Origin: Nitrosarchaeum sp.
GTDB lineage: Archaea > Thermoproteota > Nitrososphaeria > Nitrososphaerales > Nitrosopumilaceae
DNA: 64,000 nt
Direction of reading: 5' to 3'
Assembly: GCA_965223865.1 (NCBI GenBank)
Contig: OZ245020.1
Span: 288,001 to 352,000, forward strand
Part shown: piece by piece, positions 20,294 to 58,539 of the stretch
How positions within the stretch are numbered: the stretch's first letter is position 1
How the letters are laid out: every line of letters starts with the position of its first letter
Position numbers and translations under genes: made by a program
The notes under the pieces: generated by a model
Told to the model about the DNA's origin: nothing
Database searches by the model: none
Seen by the model: the letters and a program-made list of their open reading frames with translations, nothing else

Positions 20294-20367
20294 GCGGAAT
20301 TAGTCTAGATCGGTATGACGTCAGCTTCCCAAGCTGAAGGCCGCGGGTTCAAATCCCGCATTCCGCA
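20294..20367 (+). tRNA. tRNA-Gly(CCC), intronless, CCA not encoded
   Basis: Acceptor GCGGAAT/ATTCCGC+A; anticodon arm TCAGC-TTCCCAA-GCTGA; T-arm GCGGG-TTCAAAT-CCCGC. Confidence 0.97.
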
Positions 20368-56998: not shown

Positions 56999-57442
56999 TT
57001 GGATTTTTTGTTGAATAAAAAAATTGTAATTATACCCATCATAATTCTGGCTATTAGTTTAGTAATTCTTTCTTCTTCTAATGATAATGAGAAAATTGAC
57101 AAAACCATTTTTCATGTAACATTGGCAGATCCTAAAATGTATCACGAAGGGATATTTTCCGATGTTTTTTCGGTAGAAGCAGGAAAATATTTTTTTAGAT
57201 TTGTTCCAAATGGAGACAGCCCTAAATCTCTATCAATTTCATTAAAAGGAGAAAATTTTGATTTTAATGAAAATTTCAAATTAAATGGCACATCACATGA
57301 AACGGGTATTTCACAATATTATACTTGGGATTATGATGGACAAAAAGAAATTAACATTTTTGAATCTCAAGATGTTATTATTCAAATCAATCCAAATGGA
57401 AATTATTTGGGAACCGTATCAGTTGATATTATAGAAAATTAA
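56999..57442 (+). CDS. Hypothetical N-terminally anchored or secreted beta-rich protein
   Basis: Hydrophobic N-terminus; FHVTLADP..Y, YFFRFVPNGDSP. Confidence 0.7.
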   Translation: MDFLLNKKIVIIPIIILAISLVILSSSNDNEKIDKTIFHVTLADPKMYHEGIFSDVFSVEAGKYFFRFVPNGDSPKSLSISLKGENFDFNENFKLNGTSHETGISQYYTWDYDGQKEINIFESQDVIIQINPNGNYLGTVSVDIIEN

Positions 57443-57577
57443 GAAAGGCGCAAACCCCTTAAACTGCAGAACTCTGAGAGATTTCCTCTCGTTGTCAGGT
57501 CGTCATTACGCCTGATTGCCTTTTTCGTTCTGCGGGGCCACGCAGTTTTAGTCGATGAGATTTGTATCCATCGGCAT
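57443..57577 (-). ncRNA. Candidate ~135-nt highly structured, pseudoknotted RNA
   Basis: GC-rich island with at least seven complementary segment pairs; minus-strand TTAAATA at 57606-57600, 23-29 nt upstream; U-rich 3' end. Confidence 0.65.
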
Positions 57578-57795
57578 TAATTTCTATAGGAAGTTTAACT
57601 ATTTAACATTTAGTATAAAAAATTATAAAAAAAATCTAGTTTTATAAGAAAATTTATGACTTAATTTGTAATTGTTTATCATTGACAAAAAAAATTCCGA
57701 AGATTTGAAAAATTAGATTTTGTAATTTAGTAAAAGTGAGAGTTTGGTAAAAAAAATCACTGATCTATAAATTACGACCTTGATGAAAAAAGCAG

Positions 57796-58539
57796 GTGAG
57801 TCTTTCAGGCAAGGTTGCTTTGGTAACTGGTGGGAGTAGGGGTATTGGGTTTTCTACCGCAAAGATATTTTCAGAAAATGGTGCTAGTGTTGTTATCACA
57901 TCCAAGGATTCTTCTAGACTTGAAAATTCGGTACAAAATCTATCCAATACTATAGGATTGGCAGCTGATATTAGAAATGAAAATAGTGTAAGAAAAGTAG
58001 TAGAGAAAACAGTAGAGATTTTTGGAAAAATAGATATTTTAGTAAATAATGCTGGAATATTTCCGAAAATAAAGCCATTACATGAAATTGATGAATCTGA
58101 ATGGCAAGAAATTTTAGATGTAAATCTTACAGGACAATTTAGATTTACTAAAGCTTCTATTCCCTATTTGAAAAAAACTTCAGGTTCAATAATTAATATT
58201 TCATCAGATGCAGGTTTAAAGGCATATGAGGGGTTTAATGCAGATGCATATTCTGCCTCCAAAGCAGCATTAATCATACTTACAAAATGTTGGGCATTAG
58301 AATATGCAAAAAATAAGATTCGAGTTAATTGTATTTGTCCAGGGGTAGTTGATACTGATATGACAAAACCATTTTTGAAGACCAATAAAGATAGAGAATT
58401 TATGGACAATGAACATCCAATTGGACGAATTGGTAAGCCGGAGGAAGTAGCCAAAGCAATCTTGTATTTTGCCTCAGATGATGCAGCATGGACTACAGGC
58501 GCGGTGTTAACAGTTGATGGAGGAGAATCTATCAAGTAA
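57796..58539 (+). CDS. SDR oxidoreductase (FabG-like)
   Basis: TGGSRGIG, NNAG, YSASK, IRVNCICPG, VDGG. Confidence 0.92.
   Translation: MSLSGKVALVTGGSRGIGFSTAKIFSENGASVVITSKDSSRLENSVQNLSNTIGLAADIRNENSVRKVVEKTVEIFGKIDILVNNAGIFPKIKPLHEIDESEWQEILDVNLTGQFRFTKASIPYLKKTSGSIINISSDAGLKAYEGFNADAYSASKAALIILTKCWALEYAKNKIRVNCICPGVVDTDMTKPFLKTNKDREFMDNEHPIGRIGKPEEVAKAILYFASDDAAWTTGAVLTVDGGESIK

Follow-up and report, generated by a model that had tools for sequence, protein, structure and literature searches.

Very short open reading frames (ORFs) at the 5' end of a transcript are found in bacterial leader-peptide attenuators and translation-attenuation leaders, such as trpL/hisL, ermC, cat and cmlA, where conserved helices follow the frame directly, the transcript has a U-rich end and the position of the ribosome on the short ORF decides which of the helices forms. 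The leaders of cat and cmlA are nine codons long. The dual-function small RNAs (sRNAs) of bacteria, among them SgrS/SgrT, RNAIII/delta-haemolysin and SR1/SR1P, are stand-alone genes, each with a promoter and a terminator of its own, that join a small ORF to a conserved RNA domain. We report here an archaeal gene with features of both, located in a stretch of 64,000 nucleotides (nt) from Nitrosarchaeum sp. (GenBank assembly GCA_965223865.1, contig OZ245020.1, positions 288,001 to 352,000; hereafter the window, numbered from its first letter). Positions 57435-57577 of the window, read on the minus strand, very probably constitute a stand-alone gene for a transcribed and structured RNA of ~140 nt, in which a leaderless mini-ORF of nine codons is followed by a three-way junction. 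Judged by sequence, it appears to represent a new RNA family, confined to a single family of ammonia oxidisers among the archaea (Nitrosopumilaceae by record titles). We tentatively propose that translation of the mini-ORF gates the junction domain.

By analogy, the RNA would work most like the leader-peptide devices and the dual-function sRNAs, but it falls outside both classes. The ribosome's position on the short ORF would decide helix formation as it does in the leader-peptide attenuators, yet this RNA is archaeal and leaderless, its peptide is variable and holds no regulatory run of codons, no gene lies on the same transcript and no terminator/antiterminator pair has been demonstrated. 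The dual-function sRNAs encode conserved, functional peptides of at least 26 residues and base-pair with known targets, whereas the present frame consists of nine variable codons and no target is known. A stable helix 3-5 nt after a stop codon, a distance at which a structure meets the entry channel of the ribosome, is also a feature of read-through and frameshift stimulators and of the SECIS and PYLIS elements; unlike in these, the three stop codons are interchangeable here, no conserved extended frame is seen beyond the stop and the helix closes a 95-nt junction domain rather than forming a simple hairpin or an H-type pseudoknot. The Hgc RNAs of A+T-rich archaea are likewise G+C islands of 100-150 nt, but the RNA has no Rfam sequence or structure match among them and a conserved mini-ORF is not known in Hgc RNAs. 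Transfer-messenger RNA (tmRNA) also carries a frame of about ten codons with its stop inside a highly structured small RNA, but here there is no tRNA-like domain, the AUG lies at the very 5' end and the C-terminal residues are not conserved. Finally, a covarying fold is present as in riboswitches, but it does not lie in the 5' untranslated region (UTR) of a controlled gene, the RNA being stand-alone with a U-tract of its own.

The locus stands out by its composition. The G+C content is 0.50 at 57450-57549, against 0.14-0.32 in the flanks (to ~57400, and from ~57550 to 57750) and 0.34 genome-wide, and the RNA gene forms a G+C island (57443-57580), flanked by an ORF that ends at 57442 and by a gene of the SDR family that starts at 57796, both on the plus strand. 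Its folding energy compared with shuffled sequences gives z values of -3.6 on the minus strand and -4.4 on the plus strand, with none of 200 shuffles as good on either. An earlier note, made from the letters of this DNA alone, had proposed an undescribed, structured non-coding RNA with its own promoter. The paired segments and other features that it listed are all present in the sequence where it placed them, there is indeed no gene on the same strand for 1 kb, and the proposal of an undescribed structured RNA with its own promoter is borne out by covariation, by a promoter at a fixed distance and by the lack of a match in Rfam 15. The word 'non-coding' fares less well, since the mini-ORF is itself conserved as an ORF and the RNA is thus probably not purely non-coding. 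Of the three kinds of role that the note had suggested (ribozyme-, switch- or ribosome-binding-like), the one related to the ribosome is favoured by the ORF evidence. The features of the locus, in the direction in which the RNA would be transcribed, are as follows.

57600..57606, minus strand: TATA box TTAAATA, at -29 to -23 relative to the A of the AUG, read in the sequence.
57585..57592, minus strand: promoter-proximal element TTCCTATA, conserved columns between the TATA box and the start.
57548..57577, minus strand: leaderless mini-ORF, with AUG at 57577-57575, nine codons and stop at 57550-57548.
57553..57573, minus strand: hairpin P1 inside the mini-ORF (codons 2-9), with the AUG and the stop unpaired.
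57544..57547, minus strand: spacer from the stop to P2, variable in sequence.
57534..57543, minus strand: 5' strand of P2 (GCGU GG CCCC), pairing with 57448-57458.
57527..57533, minus strand: 5' strand of P3 (GCAGAAC), pairing with 57466-57472.
57516..57526, minus strand: A-rich junction J3/4, a weak candidate for a pseudoknot partner of the 3' tail.
57495..57515, minus strand: P4, a hairpin with a bulged A, variable in sequence, from covariation.
57476..57490, minus strand: P5, a nearly invariant hairpin (GAGAG stem, GNAAU loop, CUCUC), 98.2% paired.
57466..57472, minus strand: 3' strand of P3 (GUUCUGC), from RNAalifold and covariation.
57459..57465, minus strand: bulge separating P3 from P2 on the 3' side, variable in sequence, from the alignments.
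57448..57458, minus strand: 3' strand of P2 (GGGG UUU GCGC), from RNAalifold and covariation.
57433..57447, minus strand: 3' tail with a U4 tract (57435-57438), a probable oligo-U terminator that overlaps the stop codon of the convergent gene.
56999..57442, plus strand: convergent gene for a membrane-anchored beta-sandwich protein of 147 amino acids (aa), the conserved tail-to-tail neighbour.

Homologues of the RNA were collected by BLAST, with a query of 181 bases searched against 61 related genomes, and by two covariance models, R1 built from 28 copies and R2 from 98. In the resulting fold P3, P4 and P5 form a three-way junction that is closed by P2 (10 bp), and the hairpin P1 lies 5' of P2. 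Counted along the RNA itself, from 57582 downwards on the minus strand, the pairs are 10-16/23-30 (P1), 40-49/125-135 (P2), 50-56/111-117 (P3), 68-75/80-88 (P4) and 93-97/103-107 (P5). RNAalifold returns P2, P3 and P5 unaided from a plain MAFFT alignment of 28 sequences, in which 89.7% of the cells pair, compared with 36-44% when the partners are slid, and in which 17 of the 37 pairs change on both sides, compared with 10.1 +/- 2.0 in shuffles (0/500 as high). The alignment of 98 sequences, which was fitted to the model and so leans towards it, gives 88.7% paired cells against 35-46% slid, and 32 of its 37 pairs show changes on both sides; covariation, which the earlier note had named as a check on its proposal, supports the structure. 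By helix, the paired cells in the 98 sequences amount to 69% for P1, 96.5% for P2, 94.4% for P3, 85.5% and 83.9% for the two helices of P4, and 98.2% for P5. Changes on both sides occur at eight of the ten pairs of P2, the GCGU/ACGC base of which is invariant, at all eight pairs of P4 and all seven of P1, and, in some sequence or other, at all seven of P3. The lower figure for P1 refers to a single fixed register; folded by themselves, the 5' ends (32 nt, 79 unique) have a mean minimum free energy of -6.4 kcal/mol and a mean z of -2.5, and 94% of them have a z below -1. The junction strands and the bulge vary, and the conserved nucleotides lie in the helices.

The pairing also speaks for one strand. 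Among the paired cells there are 189 G-U as against 88 A-C pairs, which favours the minus strand, and in the window's own sequence P2 contains one U-G and two G-U pairs, which fit the minus strand only. An RNA of the plus strand, namely the 3' UTR of the convergent gene, is disfavoured by the same ratio, by the minus-strand promoter and by the paralogues that lack that gene.

Five of the seven helices listed in the earlier note are retained, all with compensatory changes. Its 57455-58/57534-37, with the G-U extension, is part of P2 and covaries; 57466-72/57527-33 is P3, 57476-80/57486-90 is P5, 57495-99/57511-15 is the lower part of P4 and 57553-57/57569-73 is P1. The invariant base of P2 (57540-43 with 57448-51) was absent from that list. 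Of the two crossing helices, one has weak support and the other is not conserved: 57444-49/57518-23 is unsupported in a fixed register, with 54.9% of cells paired compared with 47-52% when slid by +1 to +3, and 57461-67/57542-48 is paired in 57.2% compared with 56.4 +/- 1.0 in shuffles, 115 of 500 of which are as high. Nor are the alternatives conserved on which the mutually exclusive CUGC/GCAG folds would depend. A register-free measure of complementarity between J3/4 and the tail is modestly positive and gives a mean longest helix of 4.55, compared with 3.94 +/- 0.10 (0/1000 permutations as high), a measure without a control for relatedness, for which reason we leave the J3/4-tail pseudoknot as unproven. 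Positions 57544 and 57465 (39 and 118 of the RNA; columns 42 and 183 of alignment A2) co-vary above their neighbours, as UA in 25 sequences, CG in 15, UG in 6, AU in 2, GC in 1 and other combinations in 38; a helix around them is not conserved.

The mini-ORF is conserved in a different manner from the fold. An AUG stands at the aligned start in 97 of the 98 copies and the frame has exactly nine codons in 92; the nine-codon ORF that the earlier note had read in this one sequence is conserved. Two further copies have eight codons by in-frame deletions of 3 nt; the four that deviate have 12, 15 and 1 codons or, in one GC-rich copy, lack the AUG. The stop codon is TAA in 69 copies, TAG in 14 and TGA in 14, and among the 92 canonical copies the stop is separated from the first pair of P2 by 4 nt in 60, by 3 nt in 17 and by 5 nt in 15. 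As many as 61 different peptides are encoded among the 98 copies, with neither conserved C-terminal residues nor a run of repeated codons. Over codons 2-9, frame 0 is free of stops in 66 of the 69 unique 5' ends, compared with 39.8 +/- 4.0 after shuffling (0/2000 as high); frame 1 is free of stops in 25/69 and frame 2 in 53/69. Paralogues in which P1 is about 40% identical (counted by eye) retain the AUG, the nine codons and the stop, and a third class with ten members retains the nine codons, two of its members having GTG for ATG. We consider it likely, from these counts, that selection maintains the frame as such, whereas its peptide shows no sign of constraint and is probably irrelevant.

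The promoter is held at a constant distance from this frame. TTAAATA starts at -29 in 66 of the 98 homologues and lies within one base of -29 in 73, and the TATA box is near-invariant in the alignment of 28 sequences, which confirms the minus-strand TTAAATA of the earlier note and adds its fixed position. In this genome, when the ATGs that open ORFs of at least 100 codons are counted by their distance from the start of a TATA heptamer, the peak falls at 28-31 nt (24, 28, 24 and 19 cases at these four offsets; mostly 2-10 at others), a clustering which indicates that leaderless mRNAs are the rule, and the AUG of the RNA stands in the same TATA-to-start register as these mRNAs. At the other end, 69 of 97 copies, some of them lacking the convergent gene, have a run of at least four T no more than 30 nt beyond ACGCC (median 6 nt); the U-rich 3' end that the earlier note had seen next to the stop of the convergent gene is there, and it is conserved. 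A TATA box at -29 and a U-tract after P2, as expected for an independent transcription unit, are both present in the sequence, and promoter and U-tract share the minus orientation. The transcript would accordingly be placed from the A of the AUG (57577), or the base next to it, to the oligo-U tract at ~57435. The element TTCCTATA between TATA box and start is kept across genera, including the copies of genus g20, and could be the site of a regulator or a part of the initiator region.

The host genome encodes an archaeal AmoA, which identifies it as that of an ammonia-oxidising archaeon, and it is to the family of this host that the RNA appears to be confined. BLAST matches were obtained in 23 of the 61 relatives, in the host's family only (22/36 there), with none in 24 genomes of 19 other families. 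With R1 the RNA was found in 138 of 151 genomes of the family, in 110 of the 115 of high quality and in 26 of 27 genera, with 1-4 matches per genome; the remaining genus, g4, has very small genomes and gave 0/4. R2 found matches in all 80 family genomes sampled. Outside the family, R1 gave none in 127 sampled genomes of the order's other 19 families and R2 none in 70 sampled genomes of 11 other families of the class, where absence means not found in the genomes searched, these being samples, and searches of more than 40 genomes being run with stricter filters. The tallies of family genomes (for R1, R2 and the convergent protein) include the unpublished G103, G117 and G118, the sequence of which was not used. 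A pattern of the core motif matches at least 114 public genome contigs, titled Nitrosopumilus, Nitrosarchaeum, Nitrosotenuis, Nitrosomaritimum or Nitrosopumilaceae, and has no match in viral contigs. Three contigs with exact core motifs (L141, L187 and L145) are titled as metagenome-assembled genomes (MAGs) of Nitrososphaeraceae (two) or Bathyarchaeota (one); since R1 and R2 gave no matches in the genomes of other families that were searched, they are likely to be mislabelled or mis-binned Nitrosopumilaceae.

The host genome itself holds three copies. Besides that of the window there is a paralogue at G000:C1:152551-152697 on the minus strand (L024/L064), which scores 123 bits with R1; its P1/ORF sequence is unrelated, it keeps the nine codons with a TAG stop, and a convergent gene for a Fur-like protein of 140 aa lies ~300 nt downstream. 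The divergent third copy, at G000:C1:1777312-1777448 on the minus strand (L063:513-649; relatives L123, L124, L125 and L246-L251), represents the third class, which keeps the TATA box, the leaderless ORF of nine codons, followed after a spacer of 3 nt by a GCGC...GCGC helix of 10 bp, and a T6-7 terminator, with an interior domain that differs from that of the main class; in the host this copy sits between EPSP-synthase-like and chorismate-synthase-like genes. A scan of the genome for a TATA box followed by an ATG, an ORF of 3-20 codons and a G+C-rich downstream region returned six loci, three of which are exactly the three copies of the RNA, all with nine codons. A miniature inverted-repeat element (MITE) or other repeat is ruled out by the low copy number (1-4), deep synteny and compensatory changes.

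The RNA matches no Rfam family and no tRNA or RNase P model, in keeping with the earlier note, which had failed to place it. At the gathering threshold, the 4227 models of Rfam 15 match the whole window only at a tRNA (20294-20367), and a permissive search of 57300-57800 gave only matches with E > 1, far below threshold. Nothing was matched on the two other copies of the host genome or on one GC-rich homologue, and at E <= 0.5 there was nothing on the RNA in 15 diverse homologous loci, with no riboswitch, ribozyme or tmRNA match. ARAGORN found nothing at the RNA locus of the window and no tRNA-like domain. The tRNA, a tRNA-Gly (CCC) on the plus strand, is the only match of the window with either Rfam or ARAGORN. 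The archaeal RNase P RNA (RF00373) was rejected as an identity, the canonical one lying elsewhere (G000:C1:1697181-1697459, 191 bits) and the candidate being unmatched. C/D and H/ACA guide RNAs were rejected too, the snoRNA matches being at chance level (E 1.4-6.2, 11-21 bits) and mostly outside the RNA; the bulge between P2 and P3 is one-sided and is thus not a pseudouridylation pocket. In the literature, full-text searches gave no description of such an RNA, nor does the accessible text of PMC5069720, PMC13475601, PMC4152357 and PMC12379486 contain one, and the supplementary start-site tables of PMC5069720, which cover Thaumarchaeota contigs, could list the locus. According to the accessible text of a 2014 review, no small-RNA study had been done in Thaumarchaeota by then (PMC4152357).

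Contigs from RNA libraries cover part of the gene. An 87-nt contig matches 57462-57542 with no differences and a 119-nt contig matches 57513-57557 with three; both come from two metatranscriptomic libraries of one study. These contigs show presence in RNA libraries, not ends or strand, and may come from a relative. In the two runs no contig lies on the flanks of 57462-57557, which, for contigs of a single study, shows neither transcript ends nor absence. A further run, X3, of which the RNA status is a guess, covers 57453-57556 and continues into unlike sequence, which marks it as a relative; X4 and the remaining runs with a match are of unrecorded type. The 119-nt contigs (runs X1 and X2) hold 57513-57542 twice, with 44 unmatched bases between; the doubled segment may be an assembly join of paralogous RNAs, or something else.

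The convergent gene for the 147-aa protein is retained in tail-to-tail orientation. Its homologue is the nearest downstream ORF at 62 of the 98 RNA loci and ends -20 to +11 nt from the end of the RNA model in 61 of these 62, so that the model reaches at most ~20 nt past the end of the convergent ORF (stop included). The protein occurs in 129 of 151 genomes of the family and was found neither in g4, where the RNA was also not found, nor in g10 (0/10, with the RNA in 10/10). It has no Pfam or NCBIfam family; its structural model shows an N-terminal membrane helix and a beta-sandwich (pLDDT 88.7) and has no PDB match at E <= 0.001, the best TM scores being 0.33-0.43. The protein is restricted to the archaeal family, and its near-invariant residues include the pattern FHV...PNGDSP...YYTWDY...PNGN. 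The fold of this protein gives no clue to the role of the RNA. The first oligo-T run after the convergent stop is a plus-strand T5 (57519-57523), the complement of the A-rich J3/4; if the convergent mRNA ends there, the 3' UTR of that mRNA would run antisense to the small RNA for ~80 nt.

The downstream ORFs are convergent to the RNA in 82 of 97 cases, and at the non-syntenic copies, counted by independent contexts, convergent and co-directional downstream genes are about equally frequent. The extra copies have unrelated genes as neighbours (Fur-like, TFB-like, EPSP- and chorismate-synthase-like, and CorA-like, all named by eye from translations). The second copy in g20 (eight loci: L076, L021, L091, L094, L096, L097, L103 and L105) has a divergent radical-SAM-like gene of 340 aa on one side and a co-directional CorA-like gene 55-91 nt downstream. 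A leader of this CorA-like transporter gene is ruled out there, the gene having its own TATA box ~25 nt before its start. The unrelated neighbours of the extra copies, together with that TATA box, indicate that the RNA is a stand-alone gene and not a leader.

How such an RNA might work is suggested by the arrangement of frame, stop and helix. Ribosomes would load on the 5' AUG as they do on the host's ordinary leaderless mRNAs and read through P1; at the stop, the base of P2 would have to open. The entry channel of a ribosome spans ~12 nt beyond the A-site codon, and with a spacer of 3-5 nt the base of P2, which is invariant, must give way to a terminating ribosome. In this way translation of the mini-ORF would control the folding or the availability of the junction domain, which would act as the effector, with the invariant P3 and P5 as a putative binding site for a protein or another partner. 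That translation gates the junction domain in this manner, giving a translation-gated small RNA, is in our judgement a plausible reading, put at somewhat below an even chance. The broader proposition, that these RNAs form an unrecognised class of archaeal riboregulators in which the mini-ORF serves purely as a device for landing and stopping ribosomes, and so switches a three-way-junction effector on or off, is possible but doubtful.

Several points weigh against such a role for translation. All the shuffle statistics are inflated, since the sequences are related to one another; frame 2, too, is free of stops in 53/69; and the absence of TGG at the position of the stop is weak evidence, because by our own arithmetic only ~2 would be expected. 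P1 starts 2 nt downstream of the AUG, where it could impede initiation on a leaderless RNA. A copy from a GC-rich genus (L065) has neither AUG nor ORF, and four other copies deviate. The evidence from RNA libraries consists of contigs from one study that could derive from a relative. No conserved alternative structure favoured by translation emerged from the two candidate alternative pairings tested. That P3 and P5 are conserved, rather than the junctions, is circumstantial as evidence for a binding site, and the junction domain has no known partner or target, no target search having been made.

Some of these points would suit an untranslated RNA, with a structural or protein-binding role as scaffold, decoy or guide by way of P3/P5. 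The AUG would then be a by-product of the initiator context, the 'stop' an A-rich linker and the distance of 27 nt set by P1; the strong covariation of P2-P5, the conserved P1 hairpin, the 61 peptides in 98 copies, a frame 2 that is mostly open too and the retention of P2-P5 and of the P5 loop in L065 all agree with this. We nevertheless hold it to be unlikely. Three stop codons are used at one aligned position, where six of the 69 unique sequences lack a stop; premature stops occur in 3/69 where ~29 would be expected; both length changes are in frame, as multiples of three; in the third class GTG is the sole substitute for ATG; and the paralogues with an unrelated P1 keep the AUG, the frame and the stop. 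The register that the AUG shares with the genome's leaderless genes argues, moreover, that ribosomes should see it. If the frame is read at all, it might be for its product, and a gene for a bioactive or precursor peptide of nine residues, with the 3' structure as stabiliser and terminator, would explain the conservation of the frame; there are tiny peptide genes stabilised by a hairpin at the 3' end, such as the seven-codon gene of the microcin C precursor. Such a gene is highly improbable here, as the peptide is not conserved between paralogues or genera (61 variants), no modification or export genes are conserved next to it and conservation of the RNA domain far exceeds that of the peptide.

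The 3' part of the RNA invites other readings. P2 and the U-tract could act as the terminator of a ribosome-controlled attenuator, in which a ribosome at the stop blocks P2 and lets antisense transcription into the convergent gene, or, in an alternative form, the small RNA could pair with the 3' UTR of that gene. The tail-to-tail overlap at 62/98 loci, with ends at -20 to +11 nt in 61/62, the G+C-rich helix directly before the U-tract, the stop 3-5 nt before P2 and the plus-strand T5 (57519-57523), which could end the convergent mRNA inside the RNA gene, are all in its favour. We think it quite unlikely even so, given that g10 has the RNA in 10/10 and the protein in 0/10, that the extra copies lie beside unrelated genes, that non-syntenic neighbours are convergent or co-directional about equally and that abutting genes without a spacer stay together neutrally; archaeal termination, besides, needs no hairpin. 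Were the junction instead an aptamer, P2 stabilised by a ligand would control translation of the mini-ORF, ribosome release or the stability of the RNA. A covarying three-way junction closed by a long helix is a common architecture of aptamers, and the third class keeps the platform of ORF, P2 and tail with another interior, as if sensors had been swapped; yet it is the junction strands and the bulge that vary and the helices that stay invariant, the reverse of what most aptamers show, the transcript has no regulated gene downstream (82/97 are convergent), the CorA-like gene of g20 has a TATA box of its own and no Rfam riboswitch is matched, all of which makes a ligand sensor very unlikely. 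A processing element or ribozyme, in which RNase P or RNase Z would treat the P2-P3 stack as a tRNA acceptor arm, or in which self-cleavage frees a 5' piece and the core, draws on architecture only (the long coaxial stack of P2-P3, an unpaired C and the U-rich 3' extension). We find it scarcely credible: ARAGORN makes no tRNA-like call, no ribozyme or tRNA family matches and no joints or ends are visible in the contigs.

The broader proposition, that of a class of ribosome-gated riboregulators, would have consequences beyond this locus. If true, the RNA would report translational status, that is, the capacity for ribosomes, initiators or release and recycling, the platform would be shared with sister classes that bear different effector domains, and such reporting would take place in an archaeal lineage that ranks among the most abundant on Earth. 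A frame that is kept while its peptide is not, with its stop 3-5 nt before a helix, offers a testable case of translation as a mechanical switch on an archaeal sRNA, and the RNA is a natural substrate for the study of leaderless initiation and of termination on archaeal ribosomes. The covariance model could be used to annotate the gene in hundreds of genomes and metatranscriptomes. The carriers of the RNA, which encode archaeal AmoA and bear Nitrosopumilus, Nitrosarchaeum and Nitrosotenuis titles, are key nitrifiers of oceans, sediments and soils, and because the RNA is near-universal in the family, multi-copy, strongly conserved and unlike anything in Rfam, it makes a good entry point into the RNA-based regulation of this lineage.

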